From Eledone cirrhosa (taxonomy: Eukaryota): a DNA stretch of 64,000 nucleotides. The stretch is taken from NCBI GenBank assembly GCA_964016885.1, contig OZ024741.1, positions 18,166,001-18,230,000 of the forward strand. Reading direction: 5' to 3'. This document shows positions 312 through 53,038 of the stretch, in pieces (the first letter of the stretch is position 1; each line of letters starts with the position of its first letter). Position numbers and translations under genes: made by a program. The notes under the pieces are model-generated. The model had not been told where the DNA came from and searched no databases. It saw only the letters and a program-made list of their open reading frames with translations.

Positions 312-564
<253 letters not shown>

Positions 565-1752: not shown

Positions 1753-2191
1753 CAAATAACGAAACGAAATTTAATTTCGTTTCGTTATTTGTTTTTATCG
1801 TCTCCGCTGAACCGGTACGTACTCACGCTCTATGCAAATTGGTCTGCCCACTACTAATTTTCATAGAAAAAGCATATAACGATATGTGCTTTTACGATTC
1901 TCTAGAAAGGCCGGAAGATAGGTAAATATTGCTGATGAGATGTAACAACATCGAAACTAGTCCAATATTCCTGTCTGGCTTTCTAGAGAATAGAGGAAAG
2001 GTGTTTCCTCGAAAACCAGTATGACTCTAAAAACCGGTTTGTCTGTGTGTTTACATACAGAATAGCTGGACACTCACAGTAAAGTGTCCAGTGAAAAACT
2101 TGGTACATCTACATATGTACACGTGTGTGTATTCATATGCATACTAGTATTTCAGTATACATATGTGGATGTACATTTTTAACTTAATTGT
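1746..2191 (+). mobile_element. Solo diverged copy of the 469-bp hammerhead (retrozyme-like) repeat
   Basis: Colinear with the units at 49.2-52.9 kb, flanked by (TA)n on both sides, and starts with a 25-bp perfect fold-back (1746-1798). Confidence 0.85.
1925..1969 (+). ncRNA. Type I hammerhead ribozyme (minimal stem III)
   Basis: AATATTG-CTGATGA-GATGT-AACA-ACATC-GAAA-C-TA-GTC-CAATATT: full catalytic core, stems I and II, palindromic ACTAGT stem III, GUC cleavage triplet. Confidence 0.88.
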
Positions 2192-5700: not shown

Positions 5701-8168
5701 CTTTATTAGCCACAAGGGCGCAAAAGAAAAGGGGGACAATACACAGACATGCCGGGGATTTTACATACAGTCGTGTAAAAAATATAAAAACAAACAATTA
5801 CAACAATCGAAATCCCCAATAGGGGGGAGGCGCCACAAATGGGTTGTTTAATACCCCGTCGATAGAACAACCCTCAACTCCAGGAGCGTGTTGTACAAGT
5901 GCTCCTTTCTTCCTTTTGCTCTCTTCTTCAACCTACAGGCTTATAAACAGAGAAGGCCCAATCACTCGGGCCATTTTCGCTTCATTCACCCACCTTTCAG
6001 TAAATTTACTGGGGTTCAGTGCCTCTCTCTCCACCCTGATTCTCCTTCTAAAGTGATACTTATAGAAGGGAATCAATTGTTGTCCGGAGAGAAAGGCATC
6101 TGTCCTCAATCCTCTCAACCTCGTCCACCATATAACTTCTTTTACCATAGCCACCGTACAGAGGAAAACCGCCTCTCTTTCGTTTTTGAAAGAGGCTGGC
6201 GGTTTGATCCTTACTATGGACTCGGCAGTCAACTGGATTTGTCCCATACGCGACAGCAGTTGTTCTGCATAGTTCCACAGGTCGCTTACGCCTGGGCAGT
6301 GTACAATTGCGTGCAGGACTGTTTCAATGTCCTGCGCGCATCTTGGACACGTCCTCTTGGAAGGATGCCTGCCGGGGTGTCCGTGCCTGTAGATCTTGTC
6401 ACGAACCGGTAGAGCTCCTCGGTAGCACTGCCAGGCCAAGGACCTCTGGAAGTTGTCCATAGGTCCCTAGCGGAAAGTCCTACCAAACAGACTGGTGACC
6501 TCATCGTCTTCGACGCCCAGAGTCTCTCCGAGCACGTCGTCGCCCTTGTAACGTACAAACCCTCTATAGAATGTCGAAGTGGAGTCTCCACTGATGGCTG
6601 CGCCCGCTTGCCAGAGGACTGTGAGCGCCTAAGCGCATTCAATGTGCCAGGCGCCCATCGTTTTCGGTCTTTTCTTGACCCAGGACTGCAGCTCTGTCAG
6701 CGAGACAAGCTGTGGGAAAGCCTGTCTCACAAACGGTGCCCACACCGGTTGGGGGTCGGTGAGCAATACCTGGAGATGCCGCAGTCTCAGTGCATGTTTG
6801 CGCATCATCAGCCATGGCATTCCCAACCCTCTGTTGGAAGGGTGCTGACAGCAGACGGATCTCCTTACCAGCGGAGCCTGCTTCTTCTACAGAAACTGGA
6901 AGAGCATGCGTTCCATCTTGGCTAGGTGTTCGCGGGGACAAGGCACGACAGTCAAGCGGTAGTAGATGACGGACGCTATGAAAGTGTTCGCCACCTCCGC
7001 TCGACCTTTCAAGGACAGTTTGCACTCTGCCCACTTCTGGGTGAGTGCAAACACCTTTGCCATGACCTCGTTCCAGTTTTTCTCCACCTGGAGGTCTGGA
7101 CCGAACCAGACCCCGAGCAATTTCACCGGTCCGTCCGTCCAGCGTCCAACGACGCTGTCGGACGTCATCGGTTTGCCTCTCCACGTACCGAGTTGCAAAC
7201 CGACTGACTTGTCCGGGTTTAGTTTTGCTCCCGCCAGCGTTTCGTATTCTTTCAGTAAGTTGCAGATCACCCCGATTTCCAAGGTGCTCGACACCATTAC
7301 CGTCACATCCCGGTTCTAGAGGGATGCCCTGCAACAGCTCCAATTTCCGCAGTAGTGGCTCTAGAGTCAATACATACAGAATGGAGGAGAGAGGGCACCC
7401 CTGTCGAATGGAACGCGTGATTGCGAACGGCTCCGATAGGTAGCCGTTCACCTTGACCCTCGAGCAGATGCTGGTGTGCATCGCCTCGATCCATCCTCTG
7501 AATACGGGACCGAAACCGGCCGCCTTGAGAACTGCTTCCAAGTATCGATGGTCGACCCTATCGAATGCCTTAGACTTATCCAAGTTGATCAGAGCCCCAC
7601 CGAAGCCGGGTTTACTACCCACCCCCTCTATGATGTATCGCATGAGGTGGAGGTTGTCGTGTATGGACCTGGTCGGGATTGCACACGTTTGCGCTTTCCC
7701 TATCAGGTTCTCGACGACAAGTGCTAACCTCGTCGCTAGCACCTTGGCCAAAATCTTTAACTCTGTGTTGAGCAGAGTTATGGGCCTGAAGTTGTTAATT
7801 TCGTCCCCCTTGTTCTCGTCTTTCCTGATCAGCGTTACTACGCCCTTGCCTGCAGAACTGGGAATTCTCCCGTTCTGCTGCCAATTGCAGTAGACGGCTT
7901 CGAGAACGCCAGAGAACAAGTCCGGCATGCCTATGTAAAACTCGTAGGGTAGACCATCTAGACCGGGTGACTTGCGTTTCCCGCAGCGGCCCAGAGCGTC
8001 CCGTATCTCAGTGTCCGTGATCGGTCTTTCGCAGAACTCGGCGTCCGTGTTCGAGAGACGCGGCAGGCCGTCAAGGTATGAACTAAAGTCCATTGCCCCG
8101 TTCGGCTCACCGTCGTTCTGCTCAACAGTCGCGCAAAGTGCGGCTGAAAGGCCGCGCACATTTGCTTG
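5698..8168 (-). mobile_element. Tx1-clade non-LTR retrotransposon copy A, 5'-truncated and disrupted
   Basis: RT motifs SPGLDG, FRPITLLN, KAFDRVDH and QGCPLS, and a C-terminal CPRC..H..HC finger, split across ORFs 6639-8204, 6887-7306 and 5933-6460. A 32-nt deletion near 7307 removes YADx. The 3' end is AATAAAGAAA followed by microsatellite. Confidence 0.92.
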
Positions 8169-8184
8169 GATAGACAGATAGATA

Positions 8185-10728
8185 TGTTTCTTTTTATTTG
8201 CCACCAGGTCATCAAAAAGTGGAACAAGTACAATGGGGGGAGTTTACATGAAAAGGCGAGTAAAGAAAATATATAACAAATATAAAATTAACAAAAGTCT
8301 TAACAATAAGTACTCAATAGGGAGGGGGGGGGGTCATACCCCCCCCCCCCAGAAAAAAGTGTGCAACCCCTTCTCCTCAGGAGCACAGAGAGAGGGTGCT
8401 CCCTCGTTCCTTCCTCTTTTCCCCCTACAGGCTTATGCAAAGAGAAGGCCCATTCACACGAGCCATTCTCGTCACTTTCACCCACCTTTCATAAAAACGG
8501 CTGGGGTGGAGCACCTCTCTCGCCATCCTGATCCTTCTTCCGAAATAATATCGGAAGAAACGGACCAGTTGTTGGCCAGAGAGAAAGGTGCCTGACCTCA
8601 GTCCTTTCAGACGCGTCCACCATACAACCTCTTTCACCATGGCTATTACGCACAGAAACACCGCCTCTCCTTCATTTTTGAAGGGGGGAGGCGGCTTGAT
8701 CGTTACAATAGACTCGGTGGTCAACCGGATCGGTCCCACCCTTGACAGCAGTTGTTCGACATAGCCCCACAGATCGGCTACGCCCGAGCAGTGCACCAAT
8801 GCGTGTGCAACGGTTTCCTCGTCGCACACGCATCTGGGACAGATATTTTTGGCGGGGTCCCTACCCGGGCGCCCGTCTCTGTAGAGCTTTTCTCGAACGG
8901 GTAGAGCCCCTCGGTAGCACTGCCAGGCCAGGGACTTCTGGAAGTTGTCCCTAGGTCCCGGGCTGAATGTCCTACTGAACAGGCTGGTCAGTTTGTCTTC
9001 CTCCATGTCTAGGACATCTCCGAGGGCGTCTTCGCACCTGCTGCGTACCAGCCCTCTATAGAATGTTGCGGTGGAGTCTCCACTGATAACCGGATCCGCC
9101 TGCCAGAGGACGGTGAGCGCCTGGGCACACTCAGTGTGCCAGGCGCCCAGTTTTCTCGGTCTTTGCTTGACCCAGGAATGCAGCTCGGTGAGTGAGACGA
9201 GTCTGGGAAAGGTTCGTCTCACAAACGAGGCCCACACCGGTTGACCGGTGAGGAATACGTGGAGGTGCCGTAGCCTTAATGCGTGTTTACGCATCATTAG
9301 CCACGGCATCCCCAGCCCTCCTTTCGAAGGGTGTTGACAGCAGATGGATCTCCTCACCAAAGGAGACCGCCTCTTCCAAAGGAATTGGAAGAGCGCGAGC
9401 TCCATCTTGGCGAGGGTTTCCCTTGGGCAAGGCACGACGGTCAGGCGGTAGTAGATGACGGACGCTATATAGGTGTTCGCCACCTCCGCCCGACCTTTCA
9501 GGGATTGTTTGCAACTGGCCCACTTCTGGGTCAGTGCAAACACCCTGTTCGTAACCTCCGCCCAATTCTTCTCCACCTGGAGGTCTGGTCCGAACCAGAC
9601 CCCAAGCAACTTCACCAGGCCCTCGGTCCAGCGTCCGACGACGACATCGGAGGGCATCGGTTTGCCCCTCCACGTGCCGAGTTGCAAACCGATCGACTTG
9701 TCCCGGTTCAGCTGAGCTCCTGTGAACCTTTCGTACTCCTCCAGTAAGGTGCCGATCGCCCCGATTTCGGAGGCCGTCGACACCATTACTGTCACGTTAT
9801 CGGCGTAGGCCGACAGCGCTTTCCGCAATCCCGGTTCCAAAAGGATGCCCTGCAACGACACCAACTTCCTCAGTAGTGGCTCGAGAGTCAATACATACAG
9901 AACGGAGAAGAGAGGGCACCCTTGTCGGATGGACCGCGCGATTTCGAACGGCTCCGAGAGGTAGCCGTTCACCTTGACTCTAGAGCAGATGCGGCTGCTG
10001 TGCATAGCAGTGACCCAGCCCCTTAAAACGGGTCCGAAGCCTGCCATCGCTAGCACCGCATCCAGGTAACCATGGTCGACCCTATCGAACGCCTTAGATT
10101 GATCCAAGTTGATCAGAGCCCCACCAAAGCCGGGTTCGTTCCCAACCCTCTCTATGATGTATCGCATGAGGTGGAGGTTGTCATGCATGGACCTGGACGG
10201 GATAGCACATGTCTGCGCATCTCCCACCAGGTTGCCCACGACAAGCGCCAACCTCTTTGCTAGCACCTTGGCCAAAATCTGTAACTCTGTATTTAGCAGA
10301 GTTATGGGCCTGCAGTTACTTATTTCGTCCCCCTTGTTCTCGTCCTTCCTCACTAGCGTGACTACGCCCGTGGTCGCAGCACAGGGAATTCTCCAGTTCT
10401 GTTGCCAGTTGCAGTAGACCGTATCGAGGAGATCGGGGAACAAGTCCGGCATAGCTAGATATAGTTCGTATGGAAGACCATCGAGACCCGGGGATTTGCG
10501 TTTGCCGCATTGGCTCAGCACGTCCTCTATCTCAGCGGCTGTAATCGGCTCCTCGCAGGACTTCGCCTCCCTGTCCGAGAGACGCGGCAGGCCGTCGAGG
10601 TATGGACCGAAGTCCACTTCCCCAACCGGCTCCCCGCCCCTTCCGAACAATCGGGCAAAGTGCTTTTGAAAGGCCTCACACATCTGCTTAGGCTCAAGGA
10701 TCGCCCGTCCATCCTGGTCTCGCAAAGA
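8185..10728 (-). mobile_element. Tx1-clade retrotransposon copy B, 5'-truncated
   Basis: Open RT plus C-terminal domain, lacking ORF1 and endonuclease. Bounded by GATA/GACA repeats on both sides. Confidence 0.93.
8425..10725 (-). CDS. Truncated ORF2 (reverse transcriptase plus C-terminal zinc finger) of copy B
   Basis: 766 aa without stops, colinear with ORF2 of copy D, active site YADN. The ORF start is the truncation point, not a true start codon. Confidence 0.8.
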   Translation of the reverse strand: MRDQDGRAILEPKQMCEAFQKHFARLFGRGGEPVGEVDFGPYLDGLPRLSDREAKSCEEPITAAEIEDVLSQCGKRKSPGLDGLPYELYLAMPDLFPDLLDTVYCNWQQNWRIPCAATTGVVTLVRKDENKGDEISNCRPITLLNTELQILAKVLAKRLALVVGNLVGDAQTCAIPSRSMHDNLHLMRYIIERVGNEPGFGGALINLDQSKAFDRVDHGYLDAVLAMAGFGPVLRGWVTAMHSSRICSRVKVNGYLSEPFEIARSIRQGCPLFSVLYVLTLEPLLRKLVSLQGILLEPGLRKALSAYADNVTVMVSTASEIGAIGTLLEEYERFTGAQLNRDKSIGLQLGTWRGKPMPSDVVVGRWTEGLVKLLGVWFGPDLQVEKNWAEVTNRVFALTQKWASCKQSLKGRAEVANTYIASVIYYRLTVVPCPRETLAKMELALFQFLWKRRSPLVRRSICCQHPSKGGLGMPWLMMRKHALRLRHLHVFLTGQPVWASFVRRTFPRLVSLTELHSWVKQRPRKLGAWHTECAQALTVLWQADPVISGDSTATFYRGLVRSRCEDALGDVLDMEEDKLTSLFSRTFSPGPRDNFQKSLAWQCYRGALPVREKLYRDGRPGRDPAKNICPRCVCDEETVAHALVHCSGVADLWGYVEQLLSRVGPIRLTTESIVTIKPPPPFKNEGEAVFLCVIAMVKEVVWWTRLKGLRSGTFLSGQQLVRFFRYYFGRRIRMAREVLHPSRFYERWVKVTRMARVNGPSLCISL

Positions 10729-10997
10729 TAGACTGACAGACAGATAAACTGACAGACAGATAGACTGACAGACAAATTTCTGTTTATTTGCCAGTAGGGC
10801 ACAAAAGAAAGGGACATGTACATGGGTGGGGGGAGTTTACATAAAAATCGAGTAAGAAAAATATAACAAACAAAATAGTAACAAGATGGTCCTCAATAGG
10901 GAGGGATCGTTTTGGGGTCACACACACCCCCGAAAAAAGTGTGCGACCCTTCTCCACGGGAGCACAAAGAGAGGGTGCTCCCTTCTTCCTGTTCCAC

Positions 10998-13900
10998 CTA
11001 CAGGCTGAGGTAGAGAGAAGGACCATTCACACGGACCATTCTCGCAACTTTCACCCACCTTTCATAAAACTGGCTGGAGTGGAGCACCTCTCTCTCCATC
11101 CCGATTCTTCTTCCGAAATGGTATCGGAAGAAAAGGACCAGTTGTTGGCCGGAGAGAAAGGTGTCCGACCTCAGCCCTTTCAGACGCGTCCACCATATAG
11201 CCTTTTTAGCATGGCTATTACACAGAGGAAGACCGCCTCTCCTTCATTTTTGAAGGCGGGAGGCGGTTTGATCGTTACAATGGACTCGGTGGTCAACCTA
11301 ATTGGTCACACCCGTGATAGCAGTTGTTCGACATAGCCCCACAGATCGGCAACGCCCGGGCAGTGCACCAATGCGTGCGCGACGGTTTCCTCGTCGCGCA
11401 CGCATCTGGGACAGATCTTTTTCGAGGGGTCCCTACCCGGCGCCCGTGTCTGTAGAGCTTATCCCGAACGGGCTGAGCCCCTCGGTAGCACTGCCAGGCC
11501 AAGGACTTCTGGAAGTTGTCCATAGGTCCCGGGCTGAAAGTCCTACCGAATAGATTGGCCAGTTCGTCCTCCTCCATGCCTAGGGCTTCTCCGAGGGCGT
11601 CGTCGCACCCGCTAACCACCAGCCCTCTATAGAATGACGAGGTGGAGTCTCCGTCGATAGCCGGGTCCGCCTGCCAGAGAGCCGTGAGCGCCTGGGCACA
11701 CACGGTGTGCCAGTCGCCCAGTTTTCTTGGTCTTTGCTTCACCCAGGACTGCAGCTCGGTGAGCGAGACGAGCCTCGGGAAGGCTCGCGTCACAAACGGG
11801 GCCCACACCGGTTGACCGGTGAGGAATACCTGGAGGTGCCTTAGCCTCAATGCGTGTTTACGCATTTTTAGCCACGGCATCCCCAGCCCTCCTTTCAAAG
11901 GGTGTTGACAGCAGAAGGATCTCCTCACCAGAGGAGACCTCTTCTTCCAAATAAAATAGGGCGCGCTCCATTTTGGCGAGGATCTCACCCGGGCAAGGCA
12001 CGACAGTCAAGCGGTAATAGATGACGGACGCTATGTAAGCGTTCGCCACCTCCGCCCGACCTTTCAGGGATAGTTTGCACTCGTCCCACTTCTGGGTCAG
12101 TGCAAACACCCTATTCGTCACCTCACCCCAGTTTTTCTCCACCTGGAGGTCCGGTCCGAACCAGACCCCAAGCAACTTCACCGGGCCCTCCGTCCACTGT
12201 CCGACGATGCCGTCGCACGACATCGCTTTGCCTCTCCACTCGCCGAGTTGCAAAGCGACTGACTTGTCCCGGTTCAGCTTAGCCCCTGTCAACCTTTCGT
12301 ACTCCTCCAGTAAGGTGCCGATCGCCCCGATTTCGGAGGCCGTCGACACCATTACTGTCACGTTATCGGCGTAGGCCGACAGCGCTTTCCGCAATCCCGG
12401 TTCCAAAGGGATGCCCTGCAACGACTCCAACTTCCTCAGTAGTGGCTCGAGAGTCAATACATACAGAACGGAGAAGAGAGGGCACCCTTGTCGGATGGAC
12501 CGCGCGATTTCGAACGGCTCCGAGAGGTAGCCGTTCACCTTGACTCTAGAGCAGATGCGGCTGCTGTGCATAGCAGTGACCCAGCCCCTGAAAACGGGTC
12601 CGAACCCAGCCGCCGCTAGCACCGCATCCAGGTAACCATGGTCCACCCTATCGAACGCTTTAGACTGATCTAAATTTATCAGGGCCCCACCAAAGCCGGG
12701 TTCGTTCCCAACCCTCTCTATGATGTATCGCATGAGGTGGAGGTTGTCGTGGATGGACCTGGACGGGATAGCGCATGTCTGCGCATCTCCCACCAGACCC
12801 CCCACGACAAGCGCCAACCTCTTCGCTAACACCTTCGCCAAAATCTTTAACTCTGCATTTAGCAGTTATGGGATTAAAATTACTAATGTCATCCCCCTTG
12901 TTCTCGTCCTTCCTCACTAGCGAGACTACGCCCTTGGTCACAGAACAGGGAATTCTCCCGTTCTGTTGCCAGTTGCAGTAGACCGCCTCGAGGAGATCGG
13001 GGAACAAGTCCGGCATATTAATATATAGTTCGTAGGGCAGACCATCGAGTCCTGGAGATTTGCGTTTGCCGCATAGGCTCGGCACGTCCCCTATTTCAGC
13101 AGCTGAGATCGGCCCGTCGCAGGACCTCGCCTCCCTGTCCGAAAGACGCGGCAGGCCGTCGAGGTATGGACCGAAATCCACATCTCCAATCGGCTCCCCG
13201 CCCCTCCCGAACAATTGAGCAAAGTGCCTTTGAAAGGCCTCGCACATTTGCTTAGGTTCAAGGATCAGCCGTCCATCCTGGTCTCGCAAAGACCGGATAG
13301 TGGATTTAATCCCACTTTTCGCTTCTGTCACGCGGGCCCAGCTAACAGCTTTGGTCCCCTCGTTTCCCAGAGCACGTATTTTGCTTCGGACAACGCAGCC
13401 TTCGTGTTTCGCGTCGAAGAACTGGTTCAAGACCGTTCTCGACGCGTGCACTCTGGCCACGTTGCCGCTTCTCATTGCCTCTTCAACATTAACTACCAAC
13501 TCCCTTTCCTTCCTATTTCTATCTGAGGCTAACTCCTTACTAACTCCTATTGAAACTACTCTAATCTCTCTTTTTAGAGAGCCCCACCACCTGTTGTTGA
13601 CGATGGCGCCCGTCAACTGCTCCTTAACTAAGGTTCTAATCCGGTCCCTGTAAGCTCTACTTGCCGGTAAGGACAAGTTGAGCTTCCAGTAACCGGGCCC
13701 CTGCCTATGCGTTCTATCAAGGTGGACTACGCAGGTCACTAACTTGTGGTCTGAATAGCCCACCATGAGCATTTCTGGACAACTTAAAAGGTCCCTATCC
13801 TTAATTCTAACTAAGAACCTATCTAGGTACGATCTAGATTGACCACTGTTATTTGACCAGGTCCAGGTTGGTACAGTCGGAAAATCTAGTCGGTATCTAT

Positions 13901-14426
13901 CGGCCAGGTCGAATCGGCCGATTAACCCCTTAAGGCTGTTACACCCCCCTCTATCGGGACATGCCCCTACATAGTCCCAACGTGCATCTAGGATACCATT
14001 CCAGTCCCCCACTAAAAGCAAGGAGCGGGACGTCCCTAGAAAAGTCTCCAGACGATGGAAGAAGTCCGACCGCATTGCCCCAAAAGGGGCGTATACGGCG
14101 ACAAGCCTAAAAGCTTCGCCTTCGCCATTGCCAAGGTCCAGAACCACGAGTCGACCCTCCGGGTCCAAGTGTACCGTCTGTGTAGCGAGACCCAGATGTT
14201 TTTGCAGCAGAACGACAACCCCACCCCCACCTCCAGGCTGACAGAGAGATGCGTGCATCTCAAAGTCATCAAAGGTGGGGGTTAGCTGTCGCATGCTGCT
14301 GATCCGGGCCTCGCAAATAACCATCACATTTACACATTGTGACCTGAGGTCACTTAGAAGTTTAGCTTGCTTCCAAGGTGAGCCCAGGCCACGCGCATTT
14401 AGACAACCTACTCTTAAGACAGCCAT
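10998..14426 (-). pseudogene. Frameshifted ORF2 (APE endonuclease-RT) of copy C
   Basis: ORFs 12660-14426, 11858-12841 and 11293-11988 are consecutive pieces of the 1145-aa protein of copy D. Confidence 0.9.
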
Positions 14427-14449
14427 GTTGGTGGCAAAGAAAGAGGCAC

Positions 14450-16207
14450 TTACCTCTCTGCGTCCCGGGGTTCGGGTCGCTCAGTTTCCATGGGGCTGGT
14501 GGAGGGGTTGATGGGTGGGGTGGTGGTTTGTGGTGGTGTGGGGGTATTAGTGTGCGGAGGGGTTGGGATCTTTGGAGTTGTGTGGGTGTTTGAGGAGGGG
14601 AGGGGAAAACCTTTCAGGAGGACGCGGTTGAGTGGCCTGGTGCAGGGTGGGCCCACGTCCTCAGGGTACATGTCTTTTAAAGTTTTGAAAATGTCAAGTG
14701 GGATTTTCACCATTTTCAGGTTAGGGAGCCCCATTGCCGTTACGAAATTCGGCCCTTCGGTTTGTATCGAAGGGTTGGTTTCTATTTTTAAAGTTAGGTT
14801 TTCATTGTTTTTGTTTATGTATGTGTAGAGTTTTTGTGTTGTTGTGTTTGTTTTTGCTTGTTGTTGTTGAGTGAGTTTGCGTTTTATTGTCTGTGTTGTG
14901 TTGTCAGGTGGGGTTATTTTTGTTTGTGTGGTGTGTGTACGTTTTTTTCTTTTCACATTTTGGAAGGGAGCCCCCTCGTCTTCCGACGATATGAGCTCCT
15001 CTTCCGTATTGGAGGGGAGGGGTATATCTCCGGGTTGTGTATGAACTGTTTTTGTATTTGTGTTCTGTGGGGTGGGGCTGGGTGGGACCGTGTTTTGGAT
15101 TGTTTTCTTGAGCTGTTGTTGATGTTGTTGTTGTTGTGGTGGTGGTGGTGGTGGTGTTGTTGGTTTTTGTTGTTCTGGTGGTGATGGTAGTGTATTTTGT
15201 TGTTTTTGTGATGGTGGTGCTGGTTGTTTTTGTTGTTGTTGTGGTGTTTGTAGCAGTGGTTTTTTTGTTGTTAGTAGAGGGCAGGCCGTCCTCAGGTGAC
15301 CTCTGCCAGCGCAGTGGTAACATGAGGGTCTCCTGCCTTCCACCGTGATATTTATGTAGGTTCGCCCATCCAGTAGCACTCGGTCGGGTATTCCGGAGAT
15401 TCTCTCAGGTGTCATCTGTAAGAGAACCTCCAGACTTTTCCCCCCGAACAGTCCACTGGTGGACTCCCCTGCTGAAATTAGTATGTCCTTATCTAGGTCG
15501 GTAAATCCTGTTAGGACGGACCAGATGTTAATTACTGGCGTAGGGCTCCACATTCTTATCCTTTGTGTTCTTCTTCCTTTATATGTGGGGAAGAAGGTGT
15601 ATTGTGGTGACACTATAGGTGCCACCGAATATTTCTGAGCCAGCATTTCGTCCTTCATTCGGACCATAATGCTGGCATACAGCTTTCCTCTTTGAATAAA
15701 GAGTATATCATTTTTAATTTCTTTCAGAACCAGCTCGATTTGACTTTCGGTCAATTGCGCTGGCTTTCTCGTTTCGTTGGTTATGGTTCTGAAGCTTACG
15801 GTATTCTTGTAAATCTGTTCACGCACTTCTTCTGGGGAGTTGATCGTAAAAGAACCATCCTCTCCAAAAGATACGTATTTTCTAGCCTCTAGCAAATTTT
15901 CCTTGGCGTTCGTGATGTCAATGGCTTTGTATTCCGTGGCTCTCCTGAGTGTTTGGGCAAAAGAAATTTTGTCTTTGTTTGTTGTTGTAATGTTGTTGGT
16001 TTCCTTATTTGTGGTGTTATTTTTTTCTTGAAAATTAATTTTTTCATTTGAATTGAAATTCTTTTTTTCATTGGAGAGGAGGGGTTGTTCAACAGTTTGA
16101 ACTGTTGTTCCCTCTTTCCCGCTTGTTTTTTTGGTCGGCGTGGCGTTCGCTTCCAATATGGCGATATCGTTTTCGACGATATCGTTATCAACGATATCGA
16201 TAAACAT
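14450..16207 (-). CDS. ORF1 nucleic-acid-binding protein of copy C
   Basis: 585 aa with CCHC knuckle CYHCAGRGHLRTAC and a Q/P/T-rich tail. Nearly identical to 20140-21897. Confidence 0.9.
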   Translation of the reverse strand: MFIDIVDNDIVENDIAILEANATPTKKTSGKEGTTVQTVEQPLLSNEKKNFNSNEKINFQEKNNTTNKETNNITTTNKDKISFAQTLRRATEYKAIDITNAKENLLEARKYVSFGEDGSFTINSPEEVREQIYKNTVSFRTITNETRKPAQLTESQIELVLKEIKNDILFIQRGKLYASIMVRMKDEMLAQKYSVAPIVSPQYTFFPTYKGRRTQRIRMWSPTPVINIWSVLTGFTDLDKDILISAGESTSGLFGGKSLEVLLQMTPERISGIPDRVLLDGRTYINITVEGRRPSCYHCAGRGHLRTACPLLTTKKPLLQTPQQQQKQPAPPSQKQQNTLPSPPEQQKPTTPPPPPPQQQQHQQQLKKTIQNTVPPSPTPQNTNTKTVHTQPGDIPLPSNTEEELISSEDEGAPFQNVKRKKRTHTTQTKITPPDNTTQTIKRKLTQQQQAKTNTTTQKLYTYINKNNENLTLKIETNPSIQTEGPNFVTAMGLPNLKMVKIPLDIFKTLKDMYPEDVGPPCTRPLNRVLLKGFPLPSSNTHTTPKIPTPPHTNTPTPPQTTTPPINPSTSPMETERPEPRDAER

Positions 16208-16678
16208 TTCTGAAATATTTATTTTTCACCCCAAAAGGGGTGAAAATATATTTACCCGACGTCTAGAGTCCCAGACTAGGGGTTACAGTTAATTATACAA
16301 AAGAATTCAAAAAAATCCACTCACAAAATTAGCAGGTAAAAATCCAAATCACAGAGCGATATGACACACGTCTACTATCCTCAGACAGACAGACAGACAG
16401 ATAGACTGACAGACAGATAGACTGACAGACAGATAGACTGACAGACAGATAGACAAATTTCTGTTTATTTGCCACTAGGGCACAAAAGAAAGGGACATGT
16501 ACATGGGTGGGGGGAGTTTACATAAAAATCGAGTAAGAAAAATATAACAAACAAAATAATAACAAGAAGGTCCTCAATAGGGAGGGATCGTTTTGGGGTC
16601 ACACACACCCCCGAAAAAAGTGTGCGACCCTTCTCCACGGGAGCACAAAGAGAGGGTGCTCCCTCCTTTCTGTTCCAC

Positions 16679-19600
16679 CTACAGGCTGAGGTAGAGAGAA
16701 GGCCCATTCACACGGGCCATTCTCGCAACTTTCACCCACCTTTCATAAAACTGGCTGGAGTGGAGCACCTCTCTCTCCATCCTGATCCTTCTTCCGAAAT
16801 GGTATCGGAAGAAAAGGACCAGTTGTTGGCCGGAGAGAAAGGTGTCCGACCTCAGCCCTTTCAGACGCGTCCACCATATAGCCTCTTTTACCATGGCTAT
16901 TACACAGAGGAAGACCGCCTCTCCTTCATTTTTGAAGGGGGGAGGCGGCTTGATCGTTACAATGGACTCGGTGGTCAACCTAATTGGTCCCACCCGTGAC
17001 AGCAGTCGTTCGACATAGCCCCACAGATCGGCAACGCCCGGGCAGTGCACCAATGCGTGCGCGACGGTTTCCTCGTCGCGCACGCATCTGGGACAGATCT
17101 TTTTCGAGGGGTCCCTACCCGGGCGCCCGTGTCTGTAGAGCTTATCCCGAACGGGCAGAGCCCCTCGGTAGCACTGCCAGGCCAAGGACTTCTGGAAGTT
17201 GTCCATAGGTCCCGGGCCGAAAGTCCTACCGAATAGACTGGCCAGTTCGTCCTCCTCCATGCCTAGGGCTTCTCCGAGGGCGTCGTCGCACCCGCTAACC
17301 ACCAGCCCTCTATAGAATGACGAGGTGGAGTCTCCGTCGATAGCCGGGTCCGCCTGCCAGAGAGCCGTGAGCGCCTGGGCACACTCGGTGTGCCAGTCGC
17401 CCAGTTTTCTCGGTCTTTGCTTCACCCAGGACTGCAGCTCGGTGAGCGAGACGAGCCTCGGGAAGGCTCGCCTCACAAACGGGGCCCACACCGGTTGACC
17501 GGTGAGGAATACGTGGAGGTGCCTTAGCCTCAATGCGTGTTTACGCATTTTTAGCCACGGCATCCCCAGCCCTCCTTTCAAAGGGTGTTGACAGCAGATG
17601 GATCTCCTCACTAGAGGAGACCTCTTCTTCCAAAGGAAATAAAAGAGGGCGCGCTCCATTTTGGCGAGGATCTCACCCGGGCAAGGCACGACAGTCAAGC
17701 GGTAATAGATGACGGACGCTATGTAAGCGTTCGCCACCTCCGCCCGACCTTTTAGGGATAGTTTGCACTCGGCCCACTTCTGGGTCAGTGCAAACACCCT
17801 ATTCGTCACCTCACCCCAGTTTTTCTCCACCTGGAGGTCCGGTCCGAACCAGACCCCAAGCAACTTCACCGGGCCCTCCGTCCACCGTCCGACGATACCG
17901 TCGCACGACATCGCTTTGCCCCTCCACTCGCCGAGTTGCAAAGCGACTGACTTGTCCCGGTTCAGCTTAGCCCCTGTCAACCTTTCGTACTCCTCTAGTA
18001 AGGTGCCGATTGCCTCGATTTCCGAGGCGGTCGACACCATTACTGTTACGTTATCGGCGTAGGCCGACACCGCTTTGCGCAATCCCGGTTCCAAAGGGAT
18101 GCCCTGCAACAACTCCAACTTCCGCAGTAATGGCTCGAGAGTCAACACATACAGAAGGGAGGAGAGAGGGCACCCCTGTCGGATGGAGCGGGTGATTTCG
18201 AACGGCTCCGAAAGGTAGCCGTTCACCTTGACTCTAGAGCAGATGCGGCTGCTGTGCATGGCAGTGATCCAGCCCCTGAAAACGGGTCCGAACCCAGCCG
18301 CCGCTAGCACCGCATCCAGGTAACCATGGTCCACCCTATCGAACGCTTTAGACTGATCTAAATTTATCAGGGCCCCACCAAAGCCGGGTTCGTTCCCAAC
18401 CCTCTCTATGATGTATCGCATGAGGTGGAGGTTGTCGTGGATGGACCTGGACGGGATAGCGCATGTCTGCGCATCTCCCACCAGGCCCCCCACGACAAGC
18501 GCCAACCTCTTCGCTAACACCTTCGCCAAAATCTTTAACTCTGCATTTAGCAGAGTTATGGGCCTAAAATTACTAATGTCATCCCCCTTGTTCTCGTCCT
18601 TCCTCACTAGCGAGACTACGCCCTTGGTCACAGAACAGGGAATTCTCCCGTTCTGTTGCCAGTTGCAGTAGACCGCCTCGAGGAGATCGGGGAACAAGTC
18701 CGGCATATTAATATATAGTTCGTAGGGCAGACCATCGAGTCCTGGAGATTTGCGTTTGCCGCATAGGCTCAGCAAGTCCCCTATTTCAGCAGCTGAGATC
18801 GGCCCGTCGCAGGACCTCGCCTCCCTGTCCGAAAGACGCGGCAGGCCGTCGAGGTATGGACCGAAATCCACATCTCCAACCGGCTCCCCGCCCCTCCCGA
18901 ACAATTGGGCAAAGTGCCTTTGAAAGGCCTCGCACATTTGCTTAGGTTCAAGGATTAGCCGTCCATCCTGGTCTCGCAAAGACCGGATAGTGGATTTAAT
19001 CCCACTTTTCGCTTCTGTCACGCGGGCCCAGCTAACAGCTTTGGTCCCCTCGTTTCCCAGAGCACGTATTTTGCTTCGGACAACGCAGCCTTCGTGTTTC
19101 GCGTCGAAGAACTGGTTCAAGACCGTTCTCGACGCTTGCACTCTGGCCACGTTGCCGCTTCTCATTGCCTCTTCAACATTAACTACCAACTCCCTTTCCT
19201 TCCTATTTCTATCTGAGGCTAACTCCTTACTAACTCCTATTGAAACTACTCTAATCTCTCTTTTTAGAGAGCCCCACCACCTGTTGTTGACGATGGCGCC
19301 CGTCAACTGCTCCTTAACTAAGGTTCTAATCCGGTCCCTGTAAGCTCTACTTGCCGGTAAGGACAAGTTGAGCTTCCAGTAACCGGGCCCCTGCCTATGC
19401 GTTCTATCAAGGTGGACTACGCAGGTCACTAACTTGTGGTCTGAATAGCCCACCATGAGCATTTCTGGACAACTTAAAAAGTCCCTATCCTTAATTCTAA
19501 CTAAGAACCTATCTAGGTACGATCTAGATTGACCACTGTTATTTGACCAGGTCCAGGTTGGTACAGTCGGAAAATCTAGTCGGTATCTATCGGCCAGGTC

Positions 19601-20116
19601 GAATCGGCCGATTAACCCCTTAAGGCTGTTACACCCCCCTCTATCGGGACATGCCCCTACATAGTCCCAACGTGCATCTAGGATACCATTCCAGTCCCCC
19701 ACTAAAAGCAAGGAGCGGGACGTCCCTAGAAAAGTCTCCAGACGATGGAAGAAGTCCGACCGCATTGCCCCAAAAGGGGCGTATACGGCGACAAGCCTAA
19801 AAGCTTCGCCTTCGCCATTGCCAAGGTCCAGAACCACGAGTCGACCCTCCGGGTCCAAGTGTACCGTCTGTGTAGCGAGACCCAGATGTTTTTGCAGCAG
19901 AACGACAACCCCACCCCCACCTCCAGGCTGACAGAGAGATGCGTGCATCTCAAAGTCATCAAAGGTGGGGGTTAGCTGTCGCATGCTGCTGATCCGGGCC
20001 TCGCAAATAACCATCACATTTACACATTGTGACCTGAGGTCACTTAGAAGTTTAGCTTGCTTCCAAGGTGAGCCCAGGCCACGCGCATTTAGACAACCCA
20101 CTCTTAAGACAGCCAT
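16679..20116 (-). CDS. ORF2: apurinic-like endonuclease, reverse transcriptase and C-terminal zinc finger
   Basis: 1145 aa. APE motifs LNARGL, VYAP, VGDWN, YLDRF, SDH. RT motifs SPGLDG, FRPITLLN, LDQSKAFD, RQGCPLS, YADN, LLGVWF. L1/Tx1-type GGLG motif and CPRC..ET..H..HC finger. Confidence 0.96.
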   Translation of the reverse strand: MAVLRVGCLNARGLGSPWKQAKLLSDLRSQCVNVMVICEARISSMRQLTPTFDDFEMHASLCQPGGGGGVVVLLQKHLGLATQTVHLDPEGRLVVLDLGNGEGEAFRLVAVYAPFGAMRSDFFHRLETFLGTSRSLLLVGDWNGILDARWDYVGACPDRGGCNSLKGLIGRFDLADRYRLDFPTVPTWTWSNNSGQSRSYLDRFLVRIKDRDFLSCPEMLMVGYSDHKLVTCVVHLDRTHRQGPGYWKLNLSLPASRAYRDRIRTLVKEQLTGAIVNNRWWGSLKREIRVVSIGVSKELASDRNRKERELVVNVEEAMRSGNVARVQASRTVLNQFFDAKHEGCVVRSKIRALGNEGTKAVSWARVTEAKSGIKSTIRSLRDQDGRLILEPKQMCEAFQRHFAQLFGRGGEPVGDVDFGPYLDGLPRLSDREARSCDGPISAAEIGDLLSLCGKRKSPGLDGLPYELYINMPDLFPDLLEAVYCNWQQNGRIPCSVTKGVVSLVRKDENKGDDISNFRPITLLNAELKILAKVLAKRLALVVGGLVGDAQTCAIPSRSIHDNLHLMRYIIERVGNEPGFGGALINLDQSKAFDRVDHGYLDAVLAAAGFGPVFRGWITAMHSSRICSRVKVNGYLSEPFEITRSIRQGCPLSSLLYVLTLEPLLRKLELLQGIPLEPGLRKAVSAYADNVTVMVSTASEIEAIGTLLEEYERLTGAKLNRDKSVALQLGEWRGKAMSCDGIVGRWTEGPVKLLGVWFGPDLQVEKNWGEVTNRVFALTQKWAECKLSLKGRAEVANAYIASVIYYRLTVVPCPGEILAKMERALFYFLWKKRSPLVRRSICCQHPLKGGLGMPWLKMRKHALRLRHLHVFLTGQPVWAPFVRRAFPRLVSLTELQSWVKQRPRKLGDWHTECAQALTALWQADPAIDGDSTSSFYRGLVVSGCDDALGEALGMEEDELASLFGRTFGPGPMDNFQKSLAWQCYRGALPVRDKLYRHGRPGRDPSKKICPRCVRDEETVAHALVHCPGVADLWGYVERLLSRVGPIRLTTESIVTIKPPPPFKNEGEAVFLCVIAMVKEAIWWTRLKGLRSDTFLSGQQLVLFFRYHFGRRIRMEREVLHSSQFYERWVKVARMARVNGPSLYLSL

Positions 20117-20139
20117 GTTGGTGACAAAGAAAGAGGCAC

Positions 20140-21897
20140 TTACCTCTCTGCGTCCCGGGGTTCGGGTCGCTCAGTTTCCATGGGGCTGGTGGAGGGGTTG
20201 ATGGGTGGGGTGGTGGTTTGTGGTGGTGTGGGGGTATTAGTGTGTGGAGGGGTTGGGATCTTTGGAGTTGTGTGGGTGTTTGAGGAGGGGAGGGGAAAAC
20301 CTTTCAGGAGGACGCGGTTGAGTGGCCTGGTGCAGGGTGGGCCCACGTCCTCAGGGTACATGTCTTTTAAAGTTTTGAAAATGTCAAGTGGGATTTTCAC
20401 CATTTTCAGGTTAGGGAGCCCCATTGCCGTTACGAAATTCGGCCCTTCGGTTTGTATCGAAGGGTTGGTTTCTATTTTTAAAGTTAGGTTTTCATTGTTT
20501 TTGTTTATGTATGTGTAGAGTTTTTGTGTTGTTGTGTTTGTTTTTGCTTGTTGTTGTTGAGTGAGTTTGCGTTTTATTGTCTGTGTTGTGTTGTCAGGTG
20601 GGGTTATTTTTGTTGTTGTGGTGTGTGTACGTTTTTTTCTTTTCACTTTTTGGAAGGGAGCCCCCTCGTCTTCCGACGATATGAGCTCCTCTTCCGTATT
20701 GGAGGGGAGGGGTATATCTCCGGGTTGTGTATGAACTGTTTTTGTATTTGTGTTCTGTGGGGTGGGGCTGGGTGGGACCGTGTTTTGGGTTGTTTTCTTG
20801 AGCTGTTGTTGATGTTGTTGTTGTTGTGGTGGTGGTGGTGGTGGTGTTGTTGGTTTTTGTTGTTCTGGTGGAGATGGTAGTGTATTTTGTTGTTTTTGTG
20901 ATGGTGGTGCTGGTTGTTTTTGTTGTTGTTGTGGTGTTTGTAGCAGTGGTTTTTTAGTCTTTAGTAGAGGGCAGGCCGTCCTCAGGTGACCTCTGCCAGC
21001 GCAGTGGTAACATGAGGGTCTCCTGCCTTCCACTGTGATATTTATGTAGGTTCGCCCATCCAGTAGCACTCGGTCGGGTATTCCGGAGATTCTCTCAGGT
21101 GTCATCTGTAAGAGAACCTCCAGACTTTTCCCCCCGAACAGTCCACTGGTGGACTCCCCTGCTGAAATTAGTATGTCCTTATCTAGGTCGGTAAATCCTG
21201 TTAGGACGGACCAGATGTTAATTTCTGGCGTAGGGCTCCACATTCTTATCCTTTGTGTTCTTCTTCCTTTATATGTGGGGAAGAAGGTGTATTGTGGTGA
21301 CACTATAGGTGCCACCGAATATTTCTGAGCCAGCATTTCGTCCTTCATTCGGACCATAATGCTGGCATACAGCTTTCCTCTTTGAATAAAGAGTATATCA
21401 TTTTTAATTTCTTTCAGAACCAGCTCGATTTGACTTTCGGTCAATTGCGCTGGCTTTCTCGTTTCGTTGGTTATGGTTCTGAAGCTTACGGTATTCTTGT
21501 AAATCTGTTCACGCACTTCTTCTGGGGAGTTGATCGTAAAAGAACCATCCTCCCCAAAAGATACGTATTTTCTAGCCTCTAGCAAATTTTCCTTGGCGTT
21601 CGTGATGTCAATGGCTTTGTATTCCGTGGCTCTCCTGAGTGTTTGGGCAAAAGAAATTTTGTCTTTGTTTGTTGTTGTAATGTTGTTGGTTTCCTTATTT
21701 GTGGTGTTATTTTTTTCTTGAAAATTAATTTTTTCATTTGAATTGAAATTCTTTTTTTCATTGGAGAGGAGGGGTTGTTCAACAGTTTGAACTGTTGTTC
21801 CCTCTTTCCCGCTTGTTTTTTTGGTCGGCGTGGCGTTCGCTTCCAATATGGCGATATCGTTTTCGACGATATCGTTATCAACGATATCGATAAACAT
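20140..21897 (-). CDS. ORF1 gag-like nucleic-acid-binding protein of copy D
   Basis: 585 aa with a CX2CX4HX4C knuckle, located upstream of ORF2. Confidence 0.92.
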   Translation of the reverse strand: MFIDIVDNDIVENDIAILEANATPTKKTSGKEGTTVQTVEQPLLSNEKKNFNSNEKINFQEKNNTTNKETNNITTTNKDKISFAQTLRRATEYKAIDITNAKENLLEARKYVSFGEDGSFTINSPEEVREQIYKNTVSFRTITNETRKPAQLTESQIELVLKEIKNDILFIQRGKLYASIMVRMKDEMLAQKYSVAPIVSPQYTFFPTYKGRRTQRIRMWSPTPEINIWSVLTGFTDLDKDILISAGESTSGLFGGKSLEVLLQMTPERISGIPDRVLLDGRTYINITVEGRRPSCYHCAGRGHLRTACPLLKTKKPLLQTPQQQQKQPAPPSQKQQNTLPSPPEQQKPTTPPPPPPQQQQHQQQLKKTTQNTVPPSPTPQNTNTKTVHTQPGDIPLPSNTEEELISSEDEGAPFQKVKRKKRTHTTTTKITPPDNTTQTIKRKLTQQQQAKTNTTTQKLYTYINKNNENLTLKIETNPSIQTEGPNFVTAMGLPNLKMVKIPLDIFKTLKDMYPEDVGPPCTRPLNRVLLKGFPLPSSNTHTTPKIPTPPHTNTPTPPQTTTPPINPSTSPMETERPEPRDAER

Positions 21898-22072
21898 TTC
21901 TGAAATATTTATTTTTCACCCCAAAAGGGGTGAAAATATATTTACCCGACGTCTAGAGTCCCAGACTAGGGGTTACAGTTAATTATACAAAAGAATTCAA
22001 AAAAATCCACTCACAAAATTAGCAGGTAAAAATCCAAATCACAGAGCGATATGACACACGTCTACTATCCTC

Positions 22073-23671: not shown

Positions 23672-26600
23672 CGGTGAATTGGCAGTATCGGTAGAGGGTC
23701 TGACGCCATGTTAGGGTGGTGGATTGGCAGTATTGGTAGAGGGTCGGACGCCATGTTAGGGTGGTTGATTGGTAGTATTGGTAGAGGGTCGGACGCCATG
23801 TTAGGGTGGTTGATTGGCAGTATCGGTAGAGGGTCGGACGCCATGTTAGGGTGGTTGATTGGTAGTATTGGTAGAGGGTCGGACGCCATGTTAGGGTGGT
23901 TGATTGGCAGTATCGGTAGAGGGTCGGACGCCATGTTAGGGTGGTGGATTGGCAGTATAGGTAGAGGGCTGGACGCCATGTTAGGGTGGTGGATTGGCAG
24001 TATCGGTAGAGGGTCGGACGCCATGTTAGGGTGGTTGATTGGCAGTATCGGTAGAGGGTCGGACGCCATGTTAGGGTGGTTGATTGGTAGTATTGGTTGA
24101 GGGTCGGACGCCATGTTAGGGTGGTTGATTGGCAGTATCGGTAGAGGGTCGGACGCCATGTTAGGGTGGTGGATTGGCAGTATCGTTAGAGGGTCGGACG
24201 CCATGTTAGGGTGGTTGATTGGTAGTATCGGTAGAGGGTCGGACGCCATGTTAGGGTGGTGGATTGGCAGTATCGGTAGAGGGTCGGACGCCATGTTAGG
24301 GTGGTTGATTGGCAGTATTGGTAGAGGGCTGGACGCCATGTTAGGGTGGTGGATTGGCAGTATTGGTAGAGGGCTGGACGCCATGTTAGGGTGGTGGATT
24401 GGCAGTATTGGTAGAGGGCTGGACGCCATGTTAGGGTGGTGGATTGGCAGTATAGGTAGAGGGCTGGACGCCATGTTAGGGTGGTGGATTGGCAGTATTG
24501 GTAGAGGGCTGGAAGCCATGTTAGGGTGGTGGATTGGCAGTATTGGTAGAGGGCTGGACGCCATGTTAGGGTGGTGGATTGGCAGTATTGGTAGAGGGCT
24601 GGACGCCATGTTAGGGTGGTGGATTGGCAGTATTGGTAGAGGGCTGGACGCCATGTTAGGGTGGTGGATTGGCAGTATAGGTAGAGGGCTGGACGCCATG
24701 TTAGGGTGGTGGATTGGCAGTATAGGTAGAGGGCTGGACGCCATGTTAGGGTGGTGGATTGGCAGTATAGGTAGAGGGCTGGACGCCATGTTAGGGTGGT
24801 GGATTGGCAGTATAGGTAGAGGGCTGGACGCCATGTTAGGGTGGTGGATTGGCAGTATAGGTAGAGGGCTGGACGCCATGTTAGGGTGGTGGATTGGCAG
24901 TATAGGTAGAGGGCTGGACGCCATGTTAGGGTGGTGGATTGGCAGTATAGGTAGAGGGCTGGACGCCATGTTAGGGTGGTGGATTGGCAGTATAGGTAGA
25001 GGGCTGGACGCCATGTTAGGGTGGTGGATTGGCAGTATAGGTAGAGGGCTGGACGCCATGTTAGGGTGGTGGATTGGCAGTATAGGTAGAGGGCTGGACG
25101 CCATGTTAGGGTGGTGGATTGGCAGTATTGGTAGAGGGCTGGACGCCATGTTAGGGTGGTGGATTGGCAGTATAGGTAGAGGGCTGGACGCCATGTTAGG
25201 GTGGTGGATTGGCAGTATAGGTAGAGGGCTGGACGCCATGTTAGGGTGGTGGATTGGCAGTATAGGTAGAGGGCTGGACGCCATGTTAGGGTGGTGGATT
25301 GGCAGTATAGGTAGAGGGCTGGACGCCATGTTAGGGTGGTGGATTGGCAGTATTGGTAGAGGGCTGGACGCCATGTTAGGGTGGTGGATTGGCAGTATTG
25401 GTAGAGGGCTGGACGCCATGTTAGGGTGGTGGATTGGCAGTATCGGTGGAGGGTCGGACGCCATGTTAGGGTGGTGGATTGGCAGTATCGGTGGAGGGTC
25501 GGACGCCATGTTAGGGTGGTGGATTGGCAGTATTGGTAGAGGGCTGGACGCCATGTTAGGGTGGTGGATTGGCAGTATAGGTAGAGGGCTGGACGCCATG
25601 TTAGGGTGGTGGATTGGCAGTATTGGTAGAGGACTGGACGCCATGTTAGGGTGGTGGATTGGCAGTATTGGTAGAGGGCTGGACGCCATGTTAAGGTGGT
25701 GGATTGGCAGTATTGGTAGAGGGCTGGACGCCATGTTAGGGTGGTGGATTGGCAGTATTGGTAGAGGGCTGGACGCCATGTTAGGGTGGTGGATTGGCAG
25801 TATTGGTAGAGGGCTGAACGCCATGTTAGGGTGGTGGATTGGCAGTATTGGTAGAGGGCTGGACGCCATGTTAGGGTGGTGGATTGGCAGTATAGGTAGA
25901 GGGCTGGACGCCATGTTAGGGTGGTGGATTGGCAGTATTGGTAGAGGGCTGGACGCCATGTTAGGGTGGTGGATTGGCAGTATTGGTAGAGGGCTGGACG
26001 CCATGTTAGGGTGGTGGATTGGCAGTATTGGTAGAGGGCTGGACGCCATGTTAGGGTGGTGGATTGGCAGTATTGGTAGAGGGCTGGACGCCATGTTAGG
26101 GTGGTGGATTGGCAGTATTGGTAGAGGGCTGGACGCCATGTTAGGGTGGTGGATTGGCAGTATTGGTAGAGGGCTGGACGCCATGTTAGGGTGGTGGATT
26201 GGCAGTATTGGTAGAGGGCTGGACGCCATGTTAGGGTGGTGGATTGGCAGTATTGGTAGAGGGCTGGACGCCATGTTAGGGTGGTGGATTGGCAGTATTG
26301 GTAGAGGGCTGGACGCCATGTTAGGGTGGTGGATTGGCAGTATTGGTAGAGGGCTGGACGCCATGTTAGGGTGGTGGATTGGCAGTATTGGTAGAGGGCT
26401 GGACGCCATGTTAGGGTGGTGGATTGGCAGTATTGGTAGAGGGCTGGACGCCATGTTAGGGTGGTGGATTGGCAGTATTGGTAGAGGGCTGGACGCCATG
26501 TTAGGGTGGTGGATTGGCAGTATTGGTAGAGGGCTGGACGCCATGTTAGGGTGGTGGATTGGCAGTATTGGTAGAGGGTCTGACGCCATGTTAGGGTGGT

Positions 26601-35674: not shown

Positions 35675-35734
35675 TAACTGCCTGAAGAGGTCATAGCCAT
35701 TCAATGGCTATCATCGAAATATATATAGCAGTTA
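35675..35734 (+). ncRNA. Type I hammerhead ribozyme (Penelope-like 3' end)
   Basis: TAACTGC-CTGAAGA-GGTC-ATAGCCAT-TCA-ATGGCTAT-CATC-GAAA-T-ATAT-ATA-GCAGTTA, followed by AATAAA. Confidence 0.8.
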
Positions 35735-36927: not shown

Positions 36928-36997
36928 TTTCACCTGAAGAAGGGCTTATGCCCGAAACGTCGTTCCCCACCACCACCCCACTCTCAAGAGCGTGAAA
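36928..36997 (+). ncRNA. Penelope-type minimal hammerhead motif
   Basis: TTTCAC-CTGAAGA-A-GGGC-TTAT-GCCC-GAAA-CGTC. The stem I partner GTGAAA lies about 30 nt downstream, then AATAAA. Preceded by a C/A-rich tract. Confidence 0.6.
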
Positions 36998-37478: not shown

Positions 37479-37529
<51 letters not shown>

Positions 37530-38422
37530 TTGCGAGGTTTTTGATATGAAATCGTGTGTCGAAACAAATATTGTTATACTTGGGGAGGGTCATATTTGTG
37601 TAATATTGCCAGAATTAATAACAGAACACACTCACTGATTGGTTGGTTTTCGCTTCTGTGTCCTTTATATCGGTTAATTTAATTTATTCGGTTCTCAATG
37701 TTGCCAATGACTGACCAACGGTCAAAAATACAGATACAATATAGACACAAACACATATATATAGTTTATCAAAGTTCTTTCGTTGCACATCTGCAACATC
37801 GTCAGTGGTGCATCCTCCCGTTGCATTGTATTTTCTATGCCATCTTTATTTAGTCTGTTTATATATTTATTTATTTGTTTATTTTATTTTGTCTTCTTTG
37901 CGCATGCGTTTGCGTGTGTGTATAGTGTTAATGTATTCTATCTTTACTAGTGTGTGTTTATATGTGTTTGTTGTTATTGTGCTTGTATATGTATTTATTT
38001 ATTTATTTATCTATTTATTTATTTATTTATTTATTTATACTTCTCTTAGGTCAGTGTTGTTTGTTTGGGTGTTGTTGTTATTCCATTCATTTTTTCTGTT
38101 TAGCCTTGGCCTTCTAAGTTCTATTTCACTGGCCTCTCTGATTTGCCTATCTGCTGGATCATTTCTATGTTTAGATATTATTCTAATTTCTATGTTGCCT
38201 ATGTTACCGTCGTGTTGTTGTCTGGCATGTTCGTATAGTACTGAACCGTTTTTTTTCGTCCTTTTAGTTCCCCCCAGTGTTGGTCTATCCTTTCACCTAT
38301 GCTACGAGCTGTCTCGCCTATGTATGTTGTTGTCATGTTTCTGCAACATCTTATGTTATAGACTACGTTTCTAGTTTTACAGTTTATCCGGGGGTTTACC
38401 TTACATATAATACATTTCCTAT

Positions 38423-38456
<34 letters not shown>

Positions 38457-40320: not shown

Positions 40321-40359
<39 letters not shown>

Positions 40360-52969: not shown

Positions 52970-53038
<69 letters not shown>

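Follow-up and report, generated by a model that had tools for sequence, protein, structure and literature searches.

This locus raises the question of what the hammerhead-bearing copy at positions 1746-2191 is, how it was inserted, and whether its differences from a related tandem array reflect selection on the RNA structure of one strand. Both copies lie in the window, i.e., the whole 64,000-nucleotide stretch of Eledone cirrhosa DNA analyzed here; the array (47725-52973) is a tandem, non-coding repeat with a unit of 469 nt, of which the solo copy is a truncated version with 94% identity. The GC content of the unit is about 0.36, and no ORF of at least 250 aa was found in the array.

The solo copy is a single insertion on the forward strand of a repeat family called family A here. 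Its sense arm, about 0.9 unit long, terminates at 2191, at what we call the short end, while on its left side a short inverted arm (1746-1771) carries the other, long end and folds back through the unit's own hairpin; (AT)n flanks the insertion on both sides. A type I hammerhead occupies 1925-1969 (+) and is composed of stem I (1925-1931/1963-1969), the core CUGAUGA (1932-1938), stem II (1939-1952), GAAA (1953-1956), and a minimal palindromic stem III, ACUAGU (1956-1961), with the predicted cleavage site after C1962. Sequence and fold together gave all the elements of this type, namely the core CUGANGA, GAAA, an NUH triplet, and stems I-III with the structure open at stem I. The Rfam model HH9 was matched with an E value of 8e-7 and 33.7 bits, below its gathering score of 52, and there was no Rfam match at gathering level anywhere in the 64-kb window. 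Around the hammerhead, both the fold and an alignment of many copies gave a helix at 1897-1991 (1897-1909 with 1979-1991, +), which would be expected from the modeled structure to keep both ends of a cleaved monomer together. In the array, the inverted arm (47725-49049, -) has three hammerheads and ends at the short end on (AT)n, and the direct arm (49050-52973, +) has eight hammerheads in near-identical 469-nt units and ends at the long end, with a tail of about 72 nt, on (AT)n.

The original prediction had compared the two copies letter by letter, and all of the differences that it listed were present. Stem II of the solo copy, read directly from the window, is GATGT (1939-1943) with ACATC (1948-1952), and A1940/T1951 are replaced in the array by T49830/A49841, namely the double change; A1907 and A1985 in the enclosing helix are replaced by G49797 and G49876, namely the G-U changes; and the triplet GUC (1960-1962) becomes GUU with C1962 replaced by T49852. 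Just outside the predicted stretch (1896-1991), the adjoining hairpin at 1868-1893 has the loop ACGA in the solo copy and GCGA in the array.

These sequence differences do not, however, define two types of copies. With the exact core pattern, 9,459 cores of family A were found in the 3.0-Gb genome, together with 14,019 cores of a sister family B, which was first met beside the locus L028; controls with the reversed pattern gave 0 in both cases, and the two families thus comprise more than 23,000 ribozyme cores. For alignment, 434 monomers from 157 loci were placed on one coordinate system (105 of 109 loci in a first set and 52 of 60 in a replication set, one near-duplicate locus being dropped). 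Ten clusters were obtained from 126 of the 137 loci in a position-ordered subset, and each of the roughly ten subfamilies, including those with either version of stem II, occurs as single copies as well as arrays; "solo" and "array" are hence two among these subfamilies. Pieces nearly identical to the repeat were also noticed at low depth in sequencing runs labeled as other organisms (X1, X5, X7, and X8), for which contamination is the likelier source because raw reads from the study of X5 had none.

Selection on RNA pairing, which had been proposed from the two copies alone, was borne out by the large alignment: across the 157 loci we counted 3-5 double Watson-Crick changes, depending on the reference fold, against 0.6-0.85 expected when the partners were re-dealt (P = 0.0003-0.044), i.e., an excess of double compensatory changes. 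Pairing was also kept more often in shared than in private states (157 loci, p = 7e-5 to 0.008), but this excess vanishes once transversion mismatches are left out, and shared changes at unpaired sites are likewise rich in transitions; the transition-rich spectrum may thus account for part of it. The switched pair in stem II was A-U in 175, U-A in 171, and mismatched in only one of 347 monomers, and the switch is probably a single event inherited by many copies. When 34 sequences of families A and B were compared, both sides had changed in 9 of 30 pairs while the catalytic core was invariant, and 94.5% of the pairing cells were paired as opposed to 34-48% in slid controls. The cell-based measures of pairing beat 500 of 500 shuffles in this comparison, whereas two others, based on counts of pairs or of pair types, did not exceed the shuffles (52/500 and 443/500). 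Within family A, furthermore, the 11 core positions had no shared allele in the 157 loci, for which the anchors used favor intact cores.

Two details of the predicted structure need revision. The 13-bp helix of the solo copy had been regarded as a perfect starting state, but the normal base at 1985 is G, opposite U in 58 loci and opposite C in 53, and A of the solo copy is a recurrent private change. The pair at 1907, in contrast, is A-U in 54, G-U in 30, and G-C in 25 loci and thus describes a path through A-U, G-U, and G-C. As to the 11-bp hairpin (1868-1893, +), its U-G pair was indeed kept in 107 of 110 loci, but the loop is usually ACGA, and a GNRA loop, found in 6 of 110 loci, is not a conserved feature.

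A1985 of the solo copy belongs to a four-base mutation hot spot at 1985-1988 (+), which normally reads GGAG. Private events there numbered 39 in the first set, and the replication set gave another 14, i.e., 8-12 times the background; the ratio was 7.7-10.7 in the five larger subfamily clusters. Among the assembly copies genome-wide, 681 of 6,595 differed at the hot spot, compared with 90 of 6,004 at a neighboring control 4-mer, a roughly 7-fold difference; contig data do not list these variants, so that all of the counts come from the assembly. On the ribozyme strand, most of the changes are G>A or G>T, and their rate scales with the age of the subfamily, so that the hot spot looks like a DNA-level phenomenon. 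It was not evident by eye at the equal distance in family B, and the CTGGAG context elsewhere, represented by two sites only, was changed in 4/68 at one site and 0/46 at the other. Strand transfer at the 5' end was rejected as a cause because first and later monomers were equally affected (32/187 and 23/153, respectively); a lesion in the template molecule is not favored either, given that most repeated alleles accompany higher-order duplications and are nearly lacking from young arrays. Repair within palindromes was also rejected, since G188>A arises whichever base faces it.

This last observation bears on a more general alternative, namely that pair-keeping results from DNA template switching in palindromes, or that the G-U pairs result from A-to-I editing fixed by reverse transcription. 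The unit is rich in inverted repeats, as such a process would favor, and between the subfamily of the window array and its nearest sister there are six A>G (49727, 49728, 49731, 49769, 50075, and 50088 of the window) and one C>T changes; none of these A residues is preceded by G, and the six changes resemble edited RNA fixed by reverse transcription. Private A>G changes fixed at a locus also outnumbered T>C changes by 13 to 3 in the first set. This excess was nonetheless not replicated (2 vs 0 of 11 in the replication set), and the polarised shared changes (17 vs 13) were not significant; ADAR editing was hence rejected as the source of the G-U pairs and is kept as a weak lead. Palindrome repair, for its part, leaves the conservation of the unpaired catalytic residues and the long-range covariation unexplained, and we consider this alternative improbable as compared with selection on RNA pairing.

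Which strand, then, is structured? The G-U pairs had been put forward as support for the ribozyme strand, but they fail as such: among shared states, 13-17 G-U were found versus 8-13 A-C, and their balance was not different from that among private changes (p = 0.39-0.83). The argument is further weakened because one of the two G-U changes cited, at 1985, had been mis-polarised. The ribozyme strand is the structured one on other grounds, namely the unpaired and invariant catalytic core, the z-scores of folding, and the consensus fold. The z-scores were -6.0 for the 96-nt hammerhead stretch and -8.45 for the whole unit in the sense direction, compared with -4.78 in the antisense direction, and the consensus fold amounted to -20.2 kcal/mol on the ribozyme strand and -10.2 kcal/mol on the antisense strand, which is without stem I; the covariation terms of the consensus folds were alike (sense, -4.2; antisense, -5.5). 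Folding of the 469-nt circle, which the original prediction had recommended, also agreed: representatives of seven subfamilies share one branched structure, in which the sense strand is more stable than the antisense strand by 15-36 kcal/mol.

That the element "replicates as a structured RNA" fits only in the sense of a retrotransposition intermediate, the unit having no ribozyme in antisense. Replication from RNA to RNA, as by a viroid-like RNA with genomic copies as by-products, would be compatible with the compact branched fold and with the antisense strand folding well in its turn (z = -4.8), and such replication is raised as a possibility for retrozymes in PMC7229834. No hammerhead core was found on the opposite strand of the unit, however, and every copy bears a signature of retrotransposition, with thousands of copies integrated, so that we regard this alternative as highly improbable.

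The element has instead the features of a non-LTR retrozyme: every tandem unit carries a type I hammerhead, the unit is short, low in GC, and non-coding, the predicted circle is highly self-paired, copies are dispersed, and Penelope-like elements (PLEs) with hammerheads occur in the same genome. The metazoan retrozymes of mussel, coral, and axolotl (PMC7229834) have in common with it a type I hammerhead per unit of a short, AT-rich, non-coding, and self-paired tandem repeat, two families that number thousands of copies, and hammerhead-bearing PLEs in the same genome. It is very probable, in our judgment, that the 469-nt repeat with its hammerhead is such a retrozyme, likely copied into (AT)n by the enzyme of a resident PLE. 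The class itself, and selection on structured RNA within it, are already expected. The unit of 469 nt exceeds the 170-400 nt given in PMC7229834 and lies inside the range of 51-972 nt in a recent preprint (bioRxiv 10.64898/2026.07.22.740005), and helix III is of the weak, palindromic type of amphibians, yet the host is an invertebrate, in which respect it departs from the retrozymes described in the former source. The satellite-2 hammerheads of axolotl and newt (HHR_Amex1) similarly have a helix III of one pair with a palindromic tetraloop and are expected to be cut as dimers, whereas their flanking sequence is unrelated, their host belongs to another phylum, and activity in the present case is a prediction. 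No mollusc is listed in the main text of the preprint, and we found no cephalopod retrozyme in print in a search that was thin on subscription journals.

The signature of insertion lies in the outer ends. Copies of family A form arrays built head to head, with a sense 3' end abutting (AT)n on each outer side; counted from the cleavage site, these ends are located at unit positions 231-235 (short) and about 305 (long), the latter exceeding the former by about 72 nt. Exact junctions between the long end and (AT)n numbered 2,042 genome-wide. Of the 113 loci chosen by their long end, 12 extended beyond the sequence fetched and four were unparsed; in the 97 resolved loci, the inverted end was the short one in 73, the long one in none, and neither in 24, at least two of the last being parse failures and one of the 24, L276, having an inverted piece of 16 nt that derives from the region of the long end. 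Both the solo copy and the array in the window obey this rule of one short plus one long end, and so did all seven parsed divergent pairs of family B (33 loci scanned). The same two ends followed by (AT)n were also seen in contigs of an independent run (X2). As regards target-site duplication, both flanks are (AT)n; no LTR pair is evident in the anatomy of insertion, and Penelope-type features are present, namely an inverted truncated copy, a tail at one end only, and a (TA)n target. We also noticed that, beyond (AT)n, the flanks of the retrozyme insertion at L057 (1310-1365 and 2609-2660) are mutual inverted repeats. In the window, a fragment of family B without the hammerhead is found on (AT)n at 40357-40630, with an inverted short end on its left and a long end on its right.

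Two ORF families in this genome are taken to be PLEs, an assignment that we base on motifs read by eye and on their mutual similarity; Pfam gave a weak RVT_1 match for one of the two ORFs tested and none for the other, the ~1,278-aa ORF of the young family. Both families share the end anatomy of the retrozyme, with a tail of about 60 nt, i.e., about 10 nt shorter than that of family A; six inverted pairs were found among 14 PLE loci, five of which were short plus long and one ambiguous. The first family (27,936 first-look candidates genome-wide) is represented in the window by a 3' end at 37520-38423 (-), with a fragment having CxxC and GIY-YIG, a hammerhead at 37778-37805, and a long end on (AT)n. 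The second, young family (L301-L314; e.g., G000:C3:66543200-66553100) has many intact ORFs of ~1,278 aa in tandem and inverted arrangement and is the best candidate for a helper. The nearest named homologue of a co-resident PLE protein is from Octopus vulgaris (69%). The CxxC motif before GIY-YIG, as read by eye and compared with PMC8557442, makes these elements putatively "Neptune-type". Other hammerhead-like cores in the window are located at 538-560 (-), 40937-40959 (-), 41341-41363 (+), 36934-36957 (+), and 35682-35719 (+); three of them are of one sequence family and probably represent the ends of additional repeats related to PLEs.

In terms of anatomy, EN+ PLEs with a Neptune/Nematis-type linker (PMC8557442 and PMC11167929) have in common with our copies the inverted and 5'-truncated copy, the tail at one end, (TA)n, and internal starts. 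Compared with those in PMC8557442, however, the present element has no ORF, and its tail is 60-72 nt rather than 30-40 nt. With a purified PLE protein, nicking and extension take place on both strands, and the tail is set by the two internal sites at which the protein starts (PMC11167929); no strand difference in the start site was seen in that in vitro study, whereas a strict pairing of short and long ends was counted here. In the available portion of PMC7229834, an inverted insertion with one tail is not described (0 occurrences of the word "inverted"). The preprint cited above proposes that retrozymes are PLE derivatives mobilized by PLEs, with which our data agree; it relies on co-occurrence and on the homology of pLTRs in Xenopus, while our link is the insertion signature, in the absence of homology to two PLE families.

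Given that its end anatomy is identical to that of PLEs, the unit could simply derive by truncation from the 3' end (pseudo-LTR) of an autonomous PLE that has so far escaped notice, the more so as the comparison covered two PLE families. The unit, however, repeats head to tail onto itself; neither family A nor family B has sequence similarity to the 3' end of either PLE family; and a tblastn search of all fetched non-PLE loci with eight PLE proteins revealed no unit that was entered by PLE coding sequence. Closest to this came L228, where the PLE stops on an (AT)n of its own ahead of the unit, and no ORF having RT plus GIY-YIG was contiguous with the repeat in the window array or the fetched loci. 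We therefore consider the truncated-PLE origin quite improbable and favor a non-coding retrozyme served by a PLE enzyme.

What RNA that enzyme would copy is reflected in the arms. Their 5' limits are spread round the unit, with 0 of 170 at the cleavage site, and the junction at this site reads clean (GTTC/GTCC) in 315 of 322 cases, from which the template appears continuous across the cleavage site. An apparent falling-off of RT there (17 vs 8.2 at positions 4-24) was not significant after 20 bins. The cleavage site is crossed only 0-2 times in 138 of 158 arms, and old long arrays have higher-order repeats with a period of 2, 4, 6, or 8, while young arrays carry almost no repeated alleles; long arrays thus grew at least partly as DNA, and array length is no proof of rolling-circle copying. 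Satellite-like growth after insertion was noticed in particular at L319, L323, L325, and L328 (periods of 6, 8 with nested 4, 4, and 2). We infer that the template was either a circle, which we prefer, or an uncut multimer, the data being alike for both.

The same element might accordingly be moved by the same PLE enzyme with the circle being irrelevant, i.e., with the uncut tandem transcript as the template and the ribozyme as a passenger or a device for RNA release only. Arms of mostly less than two units and the enlargement of long arrays by DNA duplication are compatible with this possibility, and ribozyme cleavage was dispensable in vitro, where uncut RNA was the main substrate (PMC11167929). 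On the other hand, the core and stems are kept with compensation between two diverged families, and retrozyme circles are abundant in mussel and axolotl according to PMC7229834; also, variants fixed in all monomers of a locus (45 events) fit a single template, although a source array is also possible. The uncut transcript is hence, to us, rather unlikely as the template.

With a circle as the template, the following route can be proposed. The 469-nt repeat would be transcribed as a tandem RNA, which would be cut as double hammerheads through the palindromic ACUAGU, and ligation would turn the monomers into circles with a misfolded ribozyme. A PLE protein would then act in trans, nicking both (AT)n strands and priming one cDNA on each of them, each from its own fixed internal site of the RNA; both cDNAs would extend across the cleavage site and be joined head to head, and long arrays would be enlarged later by DNA duplication. 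In predicted folds, the natural dimer of family A is lower by 11.6 kcal/mol as a double hammerhead than as two single ones (-195.7 vs -184.1 kcal/mol), and the active fold costs about 7.5 kcal/mol in the monomer circles of both families; the double hammerhead of family B, by contrast, is predicted to lie 11 kcal/mol above the free fold.

More tentatively, and as an idea that we hold somewhat short of probable, the circles of this octopod retrozyme might be bound by the Penelope enzyme via their shape and not their sequence; one complex would prime both nicked (AT)n strands at two fixed sites, one per strand, that bracket the strands closing the central junction of the circle, while the amphibian-type, dimer-only hammerhead would cut tandem transcripts and spare the monomer circle. 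If true, this would directly reveal the partner that is still missing for animal retrozymes and would supply a rule for the PLE "tail". As regards the enzyme that moves animal retrozymes and the origin of the PLE tail, published support has so far come from co-occurrence, homology in frogs, and one in vitro study. The present genome offers a test system in this regard, namely a 469-nt template with two predicted start sites and a candidate enzyme (more than 23,000 cores, young subfamilies, and an intact co-resident PLE).

Elsewhere in the window, several LINE-type ORFs (RT, AP endonuclease, and zf-RVT) were noticed at 6639-21915 (-), with tandem copies at 12.6-21.9 kb, and at 53908-56460 (+). 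A 45-bp minisatellite with about 170 copies is located at 23673-31315 and 44153-44602, and its unit matches part of an abundant dispersed repeat at 41250-41300.
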